The notes under the pieces: model-generated
What the model was told of the DNA's origin: nothing
What the model saw: only the letters and a program-made list of their open reading frames with translations
The model's database searches: none
Translations under genes and position numbers: made by a program
Part shown: positions 3,930 to 40,865 of the stretch, in pieces
Position numbering within the stretch: the first letter of the stretch is position 1
Layout of the letters: each line of letters opens with the position of its first letter
Sequence record: OZ346175.1
Direction: 5' to 3' (one strand)
Length of the DNA stretch: 64,000 nt
DNA from: a phage

Positions 3930-5276
3930 ATGAGTTCGAATATCTTCAGACTTGCTGATAGATTATTCAACCAACCTTTACTAGCCACTGAATCGTTAGC
4001 TCACTCAGCAGCAACTTATGTGAATAACAGATTGCTGGGTGATGTCCAAGCAGCAGTAAACTTTGATAAACCCAAAGGTGAAGCAAGAAGTCTTTTAAAA
4101 GTGAAAGATGACATTGCTATTATCCCTATTATGGGTGGTTTAACCCATCGTATGACATTCATTGATGCAATGTGTACAGGTGGATTAAGCTCTTATGAAG
4201 GTTTGCGTAGAGGCTTTGACGAAGCTTTAGCAGATGAGTCAATCAAGACTATTGTTCTGCACATCGATTCTGGTGGTGGTGAAGCTTCAGGTTGCTTTGA
4301 ATTAGCACGTCACATTATGGCTTCAAGAGGCCAAAAGAAAATTATTGCTTATGTAGATGAGTTCGCTTGTTCCGCTGCATACGCTCTTGCATCTTCTGCT
4401 GAAGAAATTATTGCATCACCAGATGCAGATGTTGGTTCTATCGGTGTAATCATGGTTCATCAGGAATTAACTAAGGCATTTGAAAAGAATGGCGTAACAA
4501 TTAACGTCATCAAAGCTGGTGAGTTTAAAGGTATGGGTTCACCATTCCAAGCACTCTCAGAAGAAAGCAAAGAAAGACTTCAAAAGAGAATTAATGATAC
4601 CTACGCAACCTTTACAGGTTTTGTAGCTGAATCTCGTAAACTCTCTGAAGAAGCTGTAAAGAATACTGAGGCGAATGTTTATTCTGCTCAGGAAGCTCTT
4701 GAACTTGGTTTAATTAACTCAATCATGTCTCAAGATGATTTCTTAAATTACTTACAAGGTTCTGAAGAGGCTCCTGTAAGTTTAAACGTTAACAATTCAG
4801 GTGAAGAAATGACTGAACAAGAAAAGCAAGAACTAGAAGCTTTGCGTCTTCAGGTTGCTCAAATGAAAGCTAAAGAACAGGAAGCTGCTTTGTCAGATTT
4901 GACTAATAAGATTTCTGCTTCTGCTGAAGCTTTTGGATTTGATGCAAAAGAAGCTGCAACGACTATTTTAGGTGCTGGTCTTGATAACCCTCTGAGCGTT
5001 CTGTTTATGAATGCTATGGAAGGTGCTAACCAGAAACTTAATGAAACTATCGCGTCCCATGCTTCTGCAATGGAAGAAAAAGAATCAGAAATTACCAAGC
5101 TGAAAGAAACTGCTGGTGCTGTTCTTGAACATTCCAACGCTATGGAAGAAGTGGGTAATGACGGCGAAGCTGATTTGGTTGAAGAAGAAAAAGAACCAGC
5201 TAAGAATGCTTCCGAAGACACCGCTGAACAACGCAAACTGGCTCTCCAGAATGCTCTAAAATCTCTTATCAAATAA
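3930..5276 (+). CDS. prohead protease (S49/ClpP-like) fused to scaffold-like C-terminal region
   Basis: S49-type motifs IVLHIDSGGGEASG and FACSAAYALASSA; acidic/coiled-coil C-terminal half; precedes capsid gene. Confidence 0.8.
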   Translation: MSSNIFRLADRLFNQPLLATESLAHSAATYVNNRLLGDVQAAVNFDKPKGEARSLLKVKDDIAIIPIMGGLTHRMTFIDAMCTGGLSSYEGLRRGFDEALADESIKTIVLHIDSGGGEASGCFELARHIMASRGQKKIIAYVDEFACSAAYALASSAEEIIASPDADVGSIGVIMVHQELTKAFEKNGVTINVIKAGEFKGMGSPFQALSEESKERLQKRINDTYATFTGFVAESRKLSEEAVKNTEANVYSAQEALELGLINSIMSQDDFLNYLQGSEEAPVSLNVNNSGEEMTEQEKQELEALRLQVAQMKAKEQEAALSDLTNKISASAEAFGFDAKEAATTILGAGLDNPLSVLFMNAMEGANQKLNETIASHASAMEEKESEITKLKETAGAVLEHSNAMEEVGNDGEADLVEEEKEPAKNASEDTAEQRKLALQNALKSLIK

Positions 5277-27385: not shown

Positions 27386-27574
27386 TCAACAACTTTCTAA
27401 TAAAGTTTTATGAAGATTTTGCTTAACAACCCGCCTCACATGCCTGTGCTCTTTCTTAATAAAGAGTGACCTCTTCTTGACAGAGCGCCTATTCTTGTAA
27501 GTATTACTAGGATACTTATCATGAACCGGACAACAGCTACCCGGATTGGTAAACTTGATAATCTCTCTTTTCAC
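27386..27574 (-). CDS. small basic protein
   Basis: 62 aa, K/R-rich, start overlaps ligase stop. Confidence 0.4.
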   Translation of the reverse strand: MKREIIKFTNPGSCCPVHDKYPSNTYKNRRSVKKRSLFIKKEHRHVRRVVKQNLHKTLLESC

Positions 27575-28707
27575 TATTCATAATCCCTAATAACTAGCCC
27601 AACAGGGAACTGTAAAGACCCCTTACGAGTCATCTTCTGGAACTGAACCGTTAAAGGCTTCCCGATAAACTCTTCAGGGTGTTCAGCAAGATACTGTTTC
27701 TTCTCATGAGTAGTCTTCCATGAGACATCTACAAAGACGTTAGGAAGAGTCTCTACAACGAACTTACCATGACCACGCTTATCGGTCTTTACACCAGTCA
27801 CTTTAAACTCTTCAGTGTGCATCTTCTTGTGCTTAATCAAGAAGTATGAACGGTGACAACACTCATAGAAGGAGTCTTCAGAGATTGAACGGTACATTGC
27901 ACCTTCAAACTTAGCTTCAACCCACTTATCATGGGCTTCATCAAACTCTTCCCAAGAATTTACACGGATAGTCTGTACAGGAACAACTCTACAGGTATCC
28001 CCAAGCTCAACAATAGGTGAGTTATCAATAACTTCACGACGTTCAGGCCAAGATTTTGAATTGTCGCAGATATCATACCAGTAGAATTTAAGAAGGTGAC
28101 GGTCTGGATTGTCAGCATTCTTAATCATAGATACAATATCTTCTAAGTCCCAACCATGAGCATAAATCTCTCCATCAAAGTCTTCAACTTGCGGATGTAA
28201 TTTAAGCAACAAAAGCAAATCTGGAATTAGTTCTGCTGGAACGTTGTAAACAGTATTCTCACGAGAATAAGCTGTGAAACCGACTGAATCAGCATCTCTT
28301 GAAATTCTACAACGGACACCATCAAGCTTTGGTTGAGCATCAGCAGGGAACTTCAGATACTTTGCATGGCTAACCTTTGCAGCATCATGAGCAAGCTGTA
28401 CACCTACTTTCTCAGTATTCTTTGCAGACTCTTTTGTGTAAGCGTAGCCTTTACGGTCAACTTGCTTTTTATACTTAGCAGCAACTTCAAAGAGAGCTTG
28501 CTGTTCAGCGTTACGCTCATTCTTTTTACCGATGTTTTTCGGTTCTGCTGTGTACTCTTCAAACATCATCTTGCCATTTTCTTTACCATAGGTTGTAATA
28601 ACTTTGTCACCTACAGCAACGCATGACCAGACGTTGAAAGAGCCATCTTTATTTTGTTTGTATAGGATTGTCATTTTTATTCCTCTGAGTGATACCAAGT
28701 ATTGCAA
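27574..28707 (-). CDS. ATP-dependent DNA ligase
   Basis: Adenylation motif I KLDGVRC (KxDGxR); 377 aa. Confidence 0.85.
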   Translation of the reverse strand: MQYLVSLRGIKMTILYKQNKDGSFNVWSCVAVGDKVITTYGKENGKMMFEEYTAEPKNIGKKNERNAEQQALFEVAAKYKKQVDRKGYAYTKESAKNTEKVGVQLAHDAAKVSHAKYLKFPADAQPKLDGVRCRISRDADSVGFTAYSRENTVYNVPAELIPDLLLLLKLHPQVEDFDGEIYAHGWDLEDIVSMIKNADNPDRHLLKFYWYDICDNSKSWPERREVIDNSPIVELGDTCRVVPVQTIRVNSWEEFDEAHDKWVEAKFEGAMYRSISEDSFYECCHRSYFLIKHKKMHTEEFKVTGVKTDKRGHGKFVVETLPNVFVDVSWKTTHEKKQYLAEHPEEFIGKPLTVQFQKMTRKGSLQFPVGLVIRDYE

Positions 28708-29924: not shown

Positions 29925-29975
29925 AAGTCCTCCTATACAAGATATTGTATAAGGTACTCTTCCCTGAGCACCTTG

Positions 29976-30503
29976 TCAACTTAGTTTTGCAAACTCTCCG
30001 TGGAGTTTAATAGCAGCTTCACAGTAAGCTTTATGGGCTTCTTCAGGTGTGTCATGGTAACCTAAAAACATCTTCTTACCTTTATAACTTATCTGTGCGA
30101 CCCACTTACCAGACTTCTTCTTCAGGCTTACACCCTTATAGCCTGATTTATTGGTGGATAGTTTGCTTTTATTCCAAGCACTTTGGTAGTCATCTGCTTC
30201 TCTTAAGTTTACAATCCTGTTATCAAGGGAGTCTCCATTAATATGGTCAATAACACCTTTCGGCAACCTACCATACATGTACAGCCATGCGAGTCTGTGT
30301 GCTTTATGTGCTTTCTTGTCAAAATAGATAGTAATCTGCTTATGACCAGTTGAGTCAATCTGGATGCTCCCCGCTACCTGTCCTGCGTACTGACTATTAA
30401 AAACTTTAACAGCCTTTGAGTCGCCCTCTCTACGAAGCCAAGTAAAGACCCCTGTTTCGGGGTCATAGTGTAGTAGTTCCTTTAAACGTTCTTTTGTAAT
30501 CAT
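29976..30503 (-). CDS. HNH homing endonuclease with AP2-like DNA-binding domain
   Basis: HNH segment VIDHINGDSLDNRIVNLREA; AP2-like SGYKGVSLKKKSGKWVAQISYKGKKMFLGYHDTPEEAHKAY; start set at ATG 30503 by conservation with paralog at 40374. Confidence 0.8.
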   Translation of the reverse strand: MITKERLKELLHYDPETGVFTWLRREGDSKAVKVFNSQYAGQVAGSIQIDSTGHKQITIYFDKKAHKAHRLAWLYMYGRLPKGVIDHINGDSLDNRIVNLREADDYQSAWNKSKLSTNKSGYKGVSLKKKSGKWVAQISYKGKKMFLGYHDTPEEAHKAYCEAAIKLHGEFAKLS

Positions 30504-30513
30504 TTTGTCACCA

Positions 30514-31070
30514 TTAATGCACTTCCAACCACGATTTACCAACCTTTGCTGTACCAGTTACAAGTGTTTCTTTCCTCAAACCTAAGTTTTTTGAAGCTTG
30601 TCCATACATCCAGTCAGCAATTGCTTTCATATCATGTGTCATACCCTCTGGACATTCCCAACTATTTTCATCGTGATATGCCAGAAGTAACCTTGCTCCG
30701 ATAGCTGGTTTTCGAGCATTCAGTTTTGTCAGGCCATCTTCACAGGCTTTTCTTGCTGCTAGGTTGATGGCCTCATTCTGAATCTGTGCTTCCGAACTCA
30801 TCAGGAGGTAGTTCAGTAGTTTATGTGGAGATTTGCACCATATCCATGCTCCAGCGACCCTGATATAACCACCTTTAGCAATTGAAGAATTCTTCCCAAA
30901 AACCTCTTCCAGAGCCTTTTTAGACGCCTTAAAATCGGCTTCTAAGCTATCAAGTAACTTCTTAATCTTTGGCAGACGCATATAGTAAGTTTGTTTAGTT
31001 AATGCACCTTCCTCTGTAGAAGCTGCCTTAATGGTTTTGGCAAACTTCTCATCACCTGCACCGAACAATA
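30514..31070 (-). CDS. DNA polymerase (family A) exon 2, C-terminal portion
   Basis: Begins LLFGAGDEK (motif B continuation, cf. T7 YGFLYGAGDEK) and contains motif C LLAYHDENSWECP; in-frame TGA 3 codons upstream of first sense codon. Confidence 0.8.
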
Positions 31071-31338
31071 CATCTGGTCAATACACTCGCAAGGTGTACC
31101 AGTTCTCTTATGAACTTCTCCGCATTTCTACGGAGTGTCGGACTATATCACGTAGTAGTAATACTACCGTTGCACTTGGGAATGGTCATTGGCTTACCAC
31201 CCTACTCTACTCAGTTCATACGTTAAGTATGCTTTTCGATAGTCTCTGAACGTTCCTCTTAAGAGGCTTCGCTGCTGATTACCATATCTTTACAGACTTA
31301 GGCTTCCAGCAATTCACAACGTTTTACATGCGCCACTG
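31071..31338 (-). ncRNA. group I self-splicing intron (ORF-less) within DNA polymerase gene
   Basis: On - strand RNA: 5' exon ends ...AUGCGU pairing with IGS GCGCAU (U.G at splice site); core elements P-like UUGCUGGAAG, Q AAUCAGCAGCG, R GUUCAGAGACUA, S GAUAUAGUCC; terminal G; splicing restores ...AKNGIYA-LLFGAGDEK. Confidence 0.75.
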
Positions 31339-33481
31339 ACGCATAAATGCCATTTTTGGCTTTCTTACGACCTTTTGTAATCTCGTGGAGAAGTTCCTCA
31401 TCCTGTGTCTCCCTACAACGAACAATATCTTCTTCCTTGTTCAGACCAAAGTAAATACTGTTCAGTGTATGCGCATCAGTCCCTGTGTAGACTTCATAGA
31501 GGTCGTTCTCAGCATCATAACGAAGATACTTGTCAGTTTCTGGATTAAGGTGCTTATCAAGATGTTTGCAATAATATCTCCCATCTTCTTGCTTGGTAAA
31601 TTCTACTGACTCTTTACCTTCAGTTACTGCTTTAGTGAACTCTTTATCACCCATAAAGTTACACAGTAAAACAAGCTGTGCAGAGTTCTGGTCAACAGAA
31701 ACAATGTTAGTCCCCTCTTCACAAATCCACACTGCCCTCATAGGTGCTCCATAGACAGCAGCACCAGACGGTACGTTTACAATACCATATTGTGTCATAC
31801 GTCCAGTTGAAGTACCAAACACCATTGCACCAGCACTAAGGCGACCATCAGGACGAATCTGGTTCAACCAACCTTTTTCATCATCCTTTGAGTTCTCAAT
31901 AGTTCTGCGTCGGTGCATCAAAGTATAGTACTTAGCAATCTTCTGTCCAAGCTCACCTTCAATCGTATCATAAGATGATTCAGTAAGTTTTGGTGAAGTA
32001 CGGATTAAGCAAGGCTCAAGCAAATCTGTGTACTTCTTCACAGACCAGTTATGCTCAATGTACTGTACACCTTCATGTTCAACATAACTCAAACCACACC
32101 GCTCAACCATTTCCTGCCACTTAGGATGTTTTGTAATCATCTTTTTATTGTCTTTGAAACGACAAACTTTGACAGGGCGACCATCTGAATCTTTCTTGTA
32201 GTTCCAGTCATCTGGAATCCAACCAACTGATTTCAAGTAGTCTTTAACAACTGCTACCTGAGTCATATGAGAAACTTCAAACTCAATTGGTGTATATGGT
32301 GCATCAATCAAACCTGTGTAGCGACTTGACTCAAGTTCAAAGTGATTGACAACGTGACTGTTATAGTACTTCACAGTCTTGACTGTTTTTACTGGTTTCC
32401 AGTCTTTGCATTTTTTGCCAATCTTTGCATTCAACTCGTTGCAGATTGCACGAGCATCCTTCATCGCTACAAAACCCTCTTTGTACTCTTCACCAGTTAC
32501 AGAGTTGGTTGGTGTATAGCAATTTCTCTTTTCAATGTTAAAAATCTTTGTAGTTGGCTTACCAAATGGCTTGATTTCATATGTCTGCATCTCACCATTA
32601 CGTACCTGCTGACGATACTTTGTCTTAGGGTACTTGGTAATTCTTTTCAGTCCATCTGCATGACCAAATGCTTCAACATACTCATTCCAAGCTTTTGCAA
32701 ACTCTTCTCCAGTGACTTTACCTTTGGTCTTAATAGTTGGAGGTAGATGTGGTTCAACCTCTGAAGCAAGCTCATTAGTCAACTTGTCAAGCTCCTTTAC
32801 ATGGAACTCCATAAGCTCTTTATCAGCTTTCCAACCATTGATAGCTTGTTGACTCATCCAGAAAGATGTTTCTTTAGCTCGCATGTAAGTTTCATAAGTG
32901 TCTATGCCACACTTCTTAAGCTTGAGATACTCGTTATCAAGTGCCCGTTTAGTTTTGGCGTTAATACGGATATCTTCTACAACACGAGTGAAGATTTCTG
33001 CATTCCACACACCCCAATGCTCAATCTCTGGCTTACGAACACCAACACGAGCACCCCATGCAGCCAAGCCATGAGCACCTTTATAACCCTTTGGAGTTGG
33101 TCTATCCATCCACTGAACACGAGACTGGATAAGAGAATCCTGAAAGAAATTACTCCACGGCTTACACTTTGGATTATCAAAGTTCCATAAATCAGGTGCA
33201 ATGTGATTAAAAACCCACCAGTCATAACCGAGACCGTTATGGATGCAAAGACGTTTTGCCTTTAACGCAAATTCAACACCTTCACGTAAGCCACCCTTAA
33301 TGTACTTGGTATACTTGTGACCGAGGATAGGTTCATCCGTAAAGACCCATACAGGTGGCTCTTCATCGTCAGATTTATAGTCTGCGAAAGCCATTACGTG
33401 CACTTTAGTGAACTCAAGGAGTAAACCATCAGTTTCTGTATCACCAACTAAATGTAAGTTTTTAAAATCTACGTTTTCCAT
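31339..33481 (-). CDS. DNA polymerase (family A) exon 1, 3'-5' exonuclease and N-terminal polymerase domains
   Basis: Exo I motif LVGDTETDGL; ends in motif B start GRKKAKNGIYA; start set at ATG 33481 with GAGGGAG SD (track start 33511). Confidence 0.85.
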
Positions 33482-33738
33482 TTTTACTCCCTCTAAAATC
33501 ATTAACCTCATACATTACTGCAAAAAATTATAAAAAGCAAGTTGACAATGCACTTGACAAGGTGTTAATCTTTGCGAAGTGGGTTTTTACTTAAAAGGTT
33601 ACTTAACAGTTTAACTATACAGATACTTTAAAACTCTTAAAAGATTATTTAATAGCTTTTAAAAAGCTTTAAAGTATAACGTATAGAATACGTTAAGATA
33701 AAAGATTAAAACTTAATAGTTACTTAAAAGAGGCTTAC

Positions 33739-39349: not shown

Positions 39350-40396
39350 ATGGAGAAGTACACATTAACAAAGCTTCCCGATTCAGTTACACATGTCTTT
39401 ATTGACTCTGACAGTATTGCCTATAAAGGTGCTTGTGTAGTTGAGAAAGCAAAATATAAATATGTCAATAAACTCACAGCAGAAGAATCTGATTCGTTTG
39501 ATAATGCGAAAGATGCTGCAAGATGGTTAGCAGACCAGAGAATCCTTGTGGAAGAACTTGGCCTGACATTTGATGAAGATGAATGGGAAAGACAGACTTG
39601 GAAAGAAGCTAAGAGTGAAAAAGAAGCTATCATGGCTACTCAACAGGTTCTTCAGGAATGGCTTAAGGTTGTTGGTAAAGAGAGAACTTGGGTAGGCTAT
39701 TTAACAGAGAAAGGTGTGCATAAGCATAAAGACATTAAAGGTCTTGAGCACCAATATCAAGGTAACCGTAAAGATGCTGTCACACCAACACACTTAGTTG
39801 CTTGTCGTGAGTATCTTCTGTCAAGACCAGAGTTCAAACTAATTCTTGATGGATTTGAAGCCGACTCTATCGTTATTGCTAAAGCTGAAAAGATGGGTAA
39901 AAAGGCTGCCTTAATGAGTATTGATAAAGACCTTCGCCAAGCTGAAGGGACTTACTGCATTGATATGACCTATGAAAAGTCACCTTTGATTTTCATTGCT
40001 GATAACAACGTTGGTGAAATTTGGGATTGCCCAATAAAATCGACACCAAAAGCTAAGAAGACAGTTGGGGTAGGTTTTAAATTTCTTTGTTACCAAGCTG
40101 TGGCTGGTGATAATGCTGATAATTATTTTGGTTTAAAGGGCGTTGGTAAGGCTACTGTAATGAAAGCTCTTGAAGGTAAAACCACCTACAAAGAGTGTCT
40201 TGATGCAATTTATGAGCTTTATGCTAAGAAAGAGTCATACACTTATGTCTCGTGGGATGGTCAAACAATTACCAGAACACCTTTAGAGTTAATGCAGCAA
40301 CACTTTTTCTTAGCTTATCAGGAAAGAAACAAGAAAGACGATTTTACTTTTGATAAGTATGGGTGGACACCAAATGTTAACTCAACAAACTCTTAA
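39350..40396 (+). CDS. 5'-3' exonuclease / flap endonuclease
   Basis: PIN-like N-terminus (VFIDSDSIAYKGA), H3TH-like GLKGVGKATVMKAL. Confidence 0.7.
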   Translation: MEKYTLTKLPDSVTHVFIDSDSIAYKGACVVEKAKYKYVNKLTAEESDSFDNAKDAARWLADQRILVEELGLTFDEDEWERQTWKEAKSEKEAIMATQQVLQEWLKVVGKERTWVGYLTEKGVHKHKDIKGLEHQYQGNRKDAVTPTHLVACREYLLSRPEFKLILDGFEADSIVIAKAEKMGKKAALMSIDKDLRQAEGTYCIDMTYEKSPLIFIADNNVGEIWDCPIKSTPKAKKTVGVGFKFLCYQAVAGDNADNYFGLKGVGKATVMKALEGKTTYKECLDAIYELYAKKESYTYVSWDGQTITRTPLELMQQHFFLAYQERNKKDDFTFDKYGWTPNVNSTNS

Positions 40397-40865
40397 AGAG
40401 TACCTACATTATGACCCCGAAACAGGGGTCTTTACTTGGATTAAGAAATCTGCTAGACACACAAAAATTGGCTCTGTTGCAGGTACAAACTTAAGAGGGT
40501 ATACCAGAATTTATTTGTTTGGTAAGGGCTATTATGCACATACCCTAGCCGTTCTGTATATGGATGGATACCTACCTGAGTGTGTTGACCATAAAAATCA
40601 TGTAACACTAGACAATCGCTGGGTAAATCTTAGGGCATGTACGTTATCAGAGAACCAATGTAATAGGTTGCTCAATAAGAACAATAAATCAGGTGTTAAA
40701 GGTGTGTACTACAAAAAACAGTATGGTAAGTGGTCTACACAGATAACTTTTAAGAAGAGGGTCTACTTCTTCGGCAACTATGACACTATTGATGAAGCAG
40801 CAGAGGTTGTAAATAGGGAACGTCAACGTTTACACAAAGAGTTTGCTAATAAAGGTGATGAATGA
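40374..40865 (+). CDS. HNH homing endonuclease with AP2-like domain (paralog of 29976-30503)
   Basis: Shared N-terminus with paralog (LKEYLHYDPETGVFTW), HNH segment VDHKNHVTLDNRWVNLR, AP2-like SGVKGVYYKKQYGKWSTQI. Confidence 0.8.
   Translation: MLTQQTLKEYLHYDPETGVFTWIKKSARHTKIGSVAGTNLRGYTRIYLFGKGYYAHTLAVLYMDGYLPECVDHKNHVTLDNRWVNLRACTLSENQCNRLLNKNNKSGVKGVYYKKQYGKWSTQITFKKRVYFFGNYDTIDEAAEVVNRERQRLHKEFANKGDE

Follow-up and report, generated by a model that had tools for sequence, protein, structure and literature searches.

A sequence-only reading of a 64,000-nucleotide (nt) stretch of phage DNA (sequence record OZ346175.1; "the window" below means this whole stretch) had proposed that the roughly 268 nt separating two pieces of a family A DNA polymerase gene are a group I intron lacking an open reading frame (ORF). 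We analyzed this locus in the window, whose source is a Felixounavirus (a Felix O1-like myovirus), and conclude that 31338..31071 on the minus strand (268 nt) is very probably a group I intron of IA2-like type with the junctions given below, a reading to which we assign a probability of roughly 0.9. A match to an Rfam model, a fold drawn by hand, and a comparison with intronless alleles all point to it. There is no room for a sense ORF within 268 nt, so the intron is indeed ORF-less and encodes no homing endonuclease of its own. The intron is already known from Salmonella phage Meda, reported in 2019, but is uncharacterized, and it belongs, as a typical example, to a well-known class. The features on which the argument rests are as follows.

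31339..33511, minus strand: DNA polymerase exon 1 (family A), 724 codons plus 1 nt, from the ORF list and the relatives' annotation "DNA polymerase"
31071..31338, minus strand: ORF-less group I intron, 268 nt, with P1, P3-P9, P7.1/P7.2, P9.1, P9.2, and P10 and no P2
30514..31070, minus strand: DNA polymerase exon 2, with the rest of motif B, motif C (LLAYHDE), and the stop codon at 30516..30514

When the whole window was searched with all Rfam models, the group I catalytic intron model RF00028 matched 31401..31118 on the minus strand with 64.2 bits, above its gathering score of 50 (E = 5.8e-14). Neither a second Rfam match nor a second intron was found in the 64-kb window, even at E<=0.1; this search was prompted by the split nrdD gene in Meda and by a paper on phage SPJ41 that lists "two introns" among its non-coding RNAs without comment (PMC9951933). 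We rejected the Rfam coordinates as intron ends, because at its 5' end the alignment strays some 60 nt into exon 1 and shifts P1/P2 there. The boundaries were therefore set independently, from intronless alleles and from P1 and P10.

Exon 1 ends at 31339 with ...AAAAATGGCATTTATGCGT (also written ...GGCATTTATGCGT), encoding ...RKKAKNGIYA, and its frame, read onward (ORF 31298..33511), reaches a stop 13 codons past the junction. Relatives are annotated from the ATG at 33481, which is an alternative start here. Exon 2 opens at 31070 with TATTGTTCGGTGCAGGTGATGAGAAG, encodes (L)LFGAGDEK, and includes LLAYHDE, so that every exon landmark named in the sequence-only reading is in place. Joined, the exons read GCG T|TA TTG TTC, giving ...RKKAKNGIYA-LLFGAGDEK..., and the ligated junction predicted for the spliced mRNA is ...ATTTATGCGT-TATTGTTCGG....

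We gathered 39 related loci from IMG/VR and GenBank (individual loci carry L numbers below) and compared 15 intron-bearing with 16 intronless alleles. In all 16 of the latter, the exon ends abut at the proposed junction with no base gained or missing. The polymerase of Felix O1 itself (Gp96) is reported as a continuous protein of 906 aa, and that phage as free of introns (PMC3185647). The spliced protein aligned with residues 517-621 of T7 DNA polymerase without a gap across the junction (E ~4e-10), gRkkAKngIYAlLFGAGDEK lying against tRdnAKtfIYGfLYGAGDEK. This alignment and the colinear intronless alleles bear out the proposal that the junction restores both the reading frame and the spacing of motif B.

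Motif B (RxxxKxxxFxxxYG) of the spliced product is RKKAKNGIYALLFGAG, aligned to T7 R518...Y530, and the HDE of motif C is in exon 2, where the Pfam DNA_pol_A match is partial and below the cutoff (24.1 vs 34.3 bits). The junction falls at T7 G527|F528, within the O-helix of motif B and between Y526 and Y530. Under the standard correspondence of T7 Y526 and Y530 with F762 and Y766 of Escherichia coli Pol I, the intron is inserted near Pol I 763/764, one base into a codon (codons 724/725 of the phage polymerase). A 2012 comparison placed the introns of family A polymerase genes at 674 (SPO1, SP82, Bastille, and Pf-WMP3), 676 (phiL7), and 881 (PhiI and W31) (PMC3428280). Since ~763/764 is absent from these, the insertion site of the intron in the window is different from 674, 676, and 881.

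RNA fold and splicing

A complete helix set (P1, P3-P9.2, and P10) could be drawn by hand with standard pairs throughout, so a group I fold with a P3-P9 core can be built for this RNA. Elements are listed in intron numbering, with window coordinates where useful.

P1: exon AUGCGU with nt 6-11 GCGCAU; U-1.G6 wobble at the 5' splice site
P10: exon 2 UAUUG with nt 1-5 CAGUG; 5 pairs
31328..31338, minus strand: internal guide sequence CAGUGGCGCAU, nt 6-11 in P1 and nt 1-5 in P10
P3: 18-23 with 166-171; 3' strand 31173..31168 (minus)
31250..31311, minus strand: domain of P4, P5, P5a, P6, and P6a
P4: 28-33 with 61-66
P5: 36-38 with 56-58
P5a: 40-45 with 50-55; GUAA loop
P6: 67-68 with 88-89
P6a: 73-76 with 81-84; UUAA loop
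31259..31262, minus strand: loop L6a (UUAA), occupied in relatives by a 514-539 nt insert that encodes an Endonuclease VII-type protein
31140..31246, minus strand: P7 region, enclosing P7.1, P7.2, the 3' strand of P3, and P8
P7: 93 and 95-99 with 194-199; bulged A94 beside G95-C198; strands 31246..31240 and 31145..31140 (minus)
P7.1: 108-112 with 118-122; 31231..31217 (minus)
P7.2: 137-143 with 153-159; 31202..31180 (minus)
P8: 172-177 with 182-187; 31167..31152 (minus)
31071..31135, minus strand: P9, P9.1, P9.2, and the terminal G
P9: 204-210 with 215-221; GAAA loop
P9.1: 224-227 with 234-237
P9.2: 238-245 with 253-264
31071, minus strand: omega G, G268

The Q-like, R, and S elements that had been pointed out are all present, with AAUCAGCAGCG as the 3' strand of P4 alongside GUUCAGAGACUA and GAUAUAGUCC, as are the GCGCAU guide with its U.G pair and the terminal G. 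Minimum-free-energy folding, which served as a guide only, recovered P3, P4-P5, P7.1, P7.2, P8, P9, and P9.1 and missed P7, because P3 and P7 form a pseudoknot. Two extra helices, P7.1 and P7.2, lie between the P7 5' strand and the P3 3' strand and place the intron in subgroup IA; we provisionally call it IA2-like, as opposed to another IA subclass, following the Michel-Westhof scheme. The introns of T4, SPO1, and the T7-like phages belong to IA2.

Across the 15 intron copies, 1034 of 1035 pair cells are standard. Seventeen positions vary: nine lie in terminal loops, four make up two compensatory pairs, three are switches between G-C and G.U or between U-A and U.G, and one breaks a peripheral pair. 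The compensatory changes are C73-G84 to U-A in P6a and U176-A183 to C-G in P8, each in 7 of the 15 copies. Covariation support for the fold is real but thin, because the copies are so similar.

More distant introns (in the ZQ2 RNA polymerase gene, the FpV21 polymerase gene, and Vibrio and Acinetobacter terminase genes) were not used for covariation, being at other sites or in other genes and not orthologues. As a separate observation, related IA-type group I introns scoring 75-97 bits are found in other phage genes (L028 460..703, L030, and L031), most of them without annotation. The RNA polymerase gene of the N4-like phage ZQ2 has a group I intron with an HNH ORF, and the Vibrio and Acinetobacter phage terminase genes have two to three group I introns each.

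From group I chemistry and the membership of the intron in this class, splicing would be expected to proceed as follows. In the pre-mRNA, the guide GCGCAU would pair with the end of exon 1, AUGCGU, to form P1 with its U.G at the splice site, and an exogenous guanosine bound in P7 would attack the 5' splice site. The CAGUG segment of the guide would then hold UAUUG of exon 2 in P10, and the freed exon 1 would attack after the terminal G, joining the exons as GCG U|UA UUG and restoring the O-helix of motif B.

Alternatively, the intervening sequence might not be spliced, and two polypeptides might assemble into a working enzyme, a "gene in pieces" like the Aeh1 nrdA gene that is split by an endonuclease gene. 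Most GenBank records that contain the intron do annotate two separate "DNA polymerase" coding sequences (CDS), and the ORF of exon 2 could be opened at TTG 31068. However, exon 2 lacks an in-frame ATG, and that TTG is not preceded by a Shine-Dalgarno sequence. The break would also fall inside the O-helix between T7 Y526 and Y530, intronless relatives encode one continuous protein, the intervening sequence scores fully as a group I ribozyme, and the flanking exon bases are held to their P1 and P10 partners in 15 of 15 copies. We therefore consider assembly from two polypeptides very improbable. About 96 records of cultured phages carry the intron in their polymerase gene, and therefore the gene must be expressed; given that this is a replicase gene interrupted in its O-helix, with no credible start for exon 2, in dozens of plaque-forming isolates, the exons must presumably be joined.

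A few points weigh against the intron reading. We found no splicing data for any Felixounavirus in the literature, the Rfam model misaligns P1, and the intron copies are more than 95% alike, with covariation on two pairs only.

Intron forms, spread, and exon footprints

The 3.7 kb around the intron are 94-95.5% identical to many Felix O1-like myoviruses (e.g., Escherichia L27, JLBYU28, and REP8, and Salmonella BPS17W1), and 263 GenBank phage records match this locus in all. The intron is present in about 96 of these ~263 related records (>=90% identity), in copies that are 97-99.6% identical; these population counts refer to the GenBank phage collection, as IMG/VR yielded just 16 loci. Knowing the junction exactly (GCG T|TA TTG) would make correct annotation of the polymerase possible in the ~96 Felixounavirus records, and several of the intron-bearing phages are potential biocontrol agents against Salmonella and E. 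coli. Among the matches are GenBank MG065664 and MG065668 ("Campylobacter phage A132/A126"), which are ~95% identical to the Felixounavirus polymerase locus, intron included, and are probably mislabelled or contaminated. Chance ORFs within or antisense to the intron (window 31031..31249, plus strand; L020 2554..2688) appear as "hypothetical protein" in some relatives.

Four forms of the intron occur. The ORF-less form in the window is 268 nt long (267 nt in some copies); a form of ~802 nt has a 160-aa ORF within L6a; one of ~805 nt has a second allele of this ORF, ~75% identical in DNA; and a fourth is 311 nt long. The intron ORF is of Endonuclease VII type (Pfam PF02945, E = 2.2e-19), with N-terminal zinc ribbons. 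Its two alleles are found in 21 and 24 records, or ~41 once overlaps are removed, and ~55 copies are ORF-less. The 311-nt form (L020 2501..2811, L034, and L035; EC106, Mushroom, garuso, NJ12, NS7, and S19cd) is the 802-nt type minus its ORF, cleanly deleted between two CCTAA repeats, and at 62.9 bits it remains above the Rfam threshold. A single polymerase codon can thus be empty or hold an ORF-less ribozyme, a ribozyme with either of two Endonuclease VII-type alleles, or an ORF-deletion form.

Given that the intron is 97-99% identical even where the polymerase exons are only 75-79% identical, we conclude from these comparisons that it appears to have moved between lineages recently. It is present or absent at a single site, and the exon bases beside it are co-converted. 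All 15 intron-bearing alleles have the junction TATGCGT|TATTG, whatever their background, and U at -1 is invariant. In 14 of the 16 intronless alleles the junction is GCAC|TGCTG, GCAC|TACTG, or GCCC|TGTTA, with C at -1. The differences between the two types leave the protein unchanged and fall exactly on the bases that pair with the guide in P1 and P10. Only short exon tracts (2 nt to ~25 nt) travel with the intron: between BPS17W1 and intronless HY02, for example, there are ten differences from -8 to +17, while the exon is otherwise 97-99% identical. Such short flanking tracts look like the signature of homing-type gene conversion begun near the insertion site.

Two further observations concern these flanks. 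Two SUSP2-like IMG/VR contigs (L011 and L013, at about position 3998) are intronless and have the 5' GCGT of the intron type without the 3' TATTG, perhaps a trace left by intron loss or by incomplete co-conversion. In the window itself, ~30600..31780 is a mosaic patch made up of ~440 bp of exon 1, the intron, and ~470 bp of exon 2; its identity is 64-86% to phage dune and 92-100% to the BPS17W1/HY02 type, and outside it the window is 95-100% identical to dune.

The downstream HNH gene and intron mobility

On the minus strand, polymerase piece 1 (31298..33511) is followed by the gap, piece 2 (30514..31068), an ORF of HNH type (29976..30542), small genes, and DNA ligase (27574..28707).

29976..30503, minus strand: free-standing gene of homing-endonuclease type with HNH_3 and AP2 domains, 175 aa; ORF 29976..30542

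Pfam places HNH_3 (PF13392, 1.6e-15) in its product, together with a C-terminal AP2 domain (PF00847, 3.6e-12), and comparison with relatives puts the likely start at ATG 30503, 11 nt past the polymerase stop. The gene lies 557 nt from the intron, with exon 2 between them. The sequence-only reading was right to place this gene outside the intron and just after exon 2; it had also called the arrangement unusual, which does not hold, since ORF-less copies in this genus generally show it and published precedents exist in collaborative and trans homing (PMC2790892, PMC3984707).

Across phages, at least four types of HNH allele occupy the same place (175/177, 170, 167, and 178 aa), and there is also a 174-aa type. 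They have in common YDPETGV near the N-terminus and a nearly identical last ~80 nt. The HNH cassette fits exactly between the polymerase stop (30514..30516) and a conserved TTGACA (29974..29979), which its TGA overlaps; HNH-less genomes read CAC TAA TTAGTA TTGACA at this place (HNH-empty junction CACTAATTAGTATTGACA). A sigma-70 promoter after the HNH gene was considered and dropped, as no acceptable -10 element accompanies the conserved TTGACA. The family is very common (3163 phage records, T7 gene 3.8 among them), and the window has a second HNH_3+AP2 paralogue, 42% identical, at 40350..40865 on the plus strand, overlapping the end of a 348-aa ORF (39350..40396) annotated in relatives as an exodeoxyribonuclease. 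In addition, a terminator-like hairpin, GACCCCGAAACAGGGGTC followed by UUUACUU, lies in the 5' end of the HNH gene at the YDPETGV codons (30447..30464, minus strand), and its nucleotide sequence is kept in all HNH alleles at the locus. It recalls the intragenic terminator that limits expression of T4 mobE (PMC2790892).

We opened 11 loci with an ORF-less intron (the window, L002, L018, L019, L020, L026, L027, and L032-L035), and an HNH+AP2 gene directly followed exon 2 in every one, in four allele types. Among eight loci with an ORF-containing intron (pEP20, EC6, SP2, VpaE1, JH2, BPS15Q2, FSL SP-107, and LinBro), none had an HNH gene there. The intron occurs together with the 175/177 HNH allele in 33 records, and all 11 sampled rows of these were ORF-less (ten of 268 nt and one of 311 nt); it occurs with the 170 allele in 23 records, about half of them ORF-less. 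Five of these 23 records have both an intron ORF and the HNH gene (VSe102, FM4b, Si3, SBA-1781, and GE_vB_B3), and strict mutual exclusion of the two was rejected on this basis. The pattern suggests that an ORF-less intron implies the HNH gene and not the reverse, and it is only suggestive because the sample is not independent of ancestry.

The intron in the window cannot home by itself, because it carries no endonuclease gene. Two things may account for its persistence. It would interrupt the target of the Endonuclease VII-type enzyme encoded by its sibling copies, and gene conversion initiated by the HNH enzyme could carry the intron along, through trans or collaborative homing. Under trans homing, the HNH enzyme would cut HNH-less genomes near its own empty site, and repair would sometimes co-convert the intron 557 nt away. 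Co-conversion in T4 reaches up to ~2 kb (PMC2790892), a range that includes this distance, and the free-standing endonuclease gene does adjoin a gene with an ORF-less intron. Trans homing fits the one-way association described above. HNH-assisted mobility of the ORF-less intron is a tentative proposal on these grounds, which we judge somewhat short of an even chance.

Several observations speak against such assistance. Besides the five records with both genes and the shared ancestry of the sample, the HNH gene is frequent in intronless genomes too (dune, SapYZU01, HY02, and SUSP2-like loci). Their insertion-site sequence is that of HNH-less genomes, and therefore the HNH enzyme either spares it or tolerates self-cutting. 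The cassette of the 175-aa allele has ~90 nt of upstream flank in common across backgrounds, which stops short of the intron, and therefore co-conversion that reaches the intron is not the usual outcome.

These findings raise the potential that the HNH gene is a mere neighbor. The ORF-less intron would then be a decayed, immobile derivative of the endonuclease-carrying form, or its ancestor, or an immune copy, inherited passively, vertically and spread by ordinary recombination, and its link to the HNH gene would reflect physical linkage and shared ancestry. ORF loss does happen, as the CCTAA repeats of the 311-nt form show, and short tracts centered on the insertion site are expected from the intron's own enzyme and not from a break 557 nt away; the abundance of intronless genomes with the HNH gene and the short upstream flank of its cassette favor this explanation as well. 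Yet ORF-less introns have two origins (268 and 311 nt), and they accompany four HNH alleles in several backgrounds, with the HNH gene in 11 of 11 loci versus 0 of 8. Ancestry alone would hardly yield such an association in mosaic genomes. We regard the mere-neighbor explanation as having close to even odds.

A stricter form of collaborative homing would have the HNH enzyme cut the intronless polymerase gene at the insertion site itself, as F-CphI does in psbA and T3 gp5.3 does in T7-like polymerase genes. The arrangement is the same as in T3 and PhiI, where an ORF-less intron is found with an HNH gene just after the family A polymerase gene; co-conversion tracts at the insertion site are short; and the BPS17W1-like patch in the dune-like background of the window is roughly centered on that site. 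However, four intronless loci with the HNH gene (L022, L023, L005, and L006) are identical to HNH-less ones over at least +/-15 nt around the site, and such genomes would be self-cut unless the HNH enzyme only nicks, as I-HmuI does. The cassette disrupts the HNH-empty site CAC TAA TTAGTA TTGACA, and disruption of their own empty site is the usual route by which free-standing endonucleases become self-immune. The evidence argues against HNH cleavage at the insertion site in the style of F-CphI, and we consider it unlikely on these sequence comparisons.

Returning to HNH assistance in trans, Felix O1-like phages may offer a living system, open to experiment, that captures the Bonocora-Shub pathway by which mobile introns arise, and in which ORF-less forms would persist only where the HNH+AP2 gene, 557 nt away, drives them. 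We hold this broader picture to be possible but rather doubtful. Phages of E. coli and Salmonella that are easy to grow present all evolutionary states of one intron together, and the system would make trans and collaborative homing, as well as the gain and loss of intron endonucleases, testable by simple crosses. The findings leave the general understanding of group I introns and homing endonucleases unchanged.

Comparison with known systems

The closest known case is that of Salmonella phage Meda (MH586731), which has a 268-nt intron in the same codon, 97.8% identical to that in the window, with the exons joined in one CDS and an HNH gene after exon 2; its HNH allele is 170 aa long, whereas that of the window is 175 aa. 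The 2019 genome announcement says in one sentence that a DNA polymerase gene contains an intron lacking an HNH endonuclease sequence, with no structure, junction analysis, or splicing test (PMC6486253). That sentence was all that turned up when we looked in the literature for structural, splicing, or population analyses of the Felix O1-like intron.

Bonocora and Shub (2004, 2009) reportedly described the group IA2 introns of the T7-like phages PhiI and W31 (I-TslI) and the free-standing T3 gene 5.3. The likeness to our locus is considerable: in enterobacterial phages, a polymerase gene of family A is interrupted by a group I intron, an HNH gene is immediately downstream, and the endonuclease ORF of relatives is in P6a. 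In contrast, the intron ORF of the Felixounavirus relatives is of Endonuclease VII type and that of PhiI and W31 is HNH, and the PhiI and W31 insertion site is 881 (PMC3428280), not ~763/764. The introns of SPO1, SP82, Bastille, and Pf-WMP3 (I-HmuI, I-HmuII, I-BasI, and I-PfoP3I) are likewise self-splicing group I introns within finger-domain motifs of family A polymerases, although they are at site 674 (676 in phiL7) and carry their HNH nicking enzymes inside the intron, whereas the intron in the window is ORF-less.

Outside polymerase genes, T4 mobE and the nrdB intron with its defunct I-TevIII (PMC2790892) resemble our locus in that a non-autonomous intron has a free-standing HNH gene close enough for co-conversion. 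Cleavage may be elsewhere than at the insertion site, and a terminator-like hairpin lies inside the endonuclease gene. mobE, however, is upstream of the intron-bearing gene, and its role has been shown by crosses, whereas the HNH gene in the window is 557 nt downstream. The psbA intron of S-PM2, with F-CphI (Zeng, Bonocora and Shub 2009; PMC6083498), similarly combines an ORF-less intron with an adjoining free-standing endonuclease gene. The neighbor in the window is an HNH+AP2 gene and that of psbA is of Endonuclease VII type; F-CphI has the Endonuclease VII catalytic motif (PMC6083498) and belongs to the same family as the ORF found inside the intron in Felixounavirus relatives.

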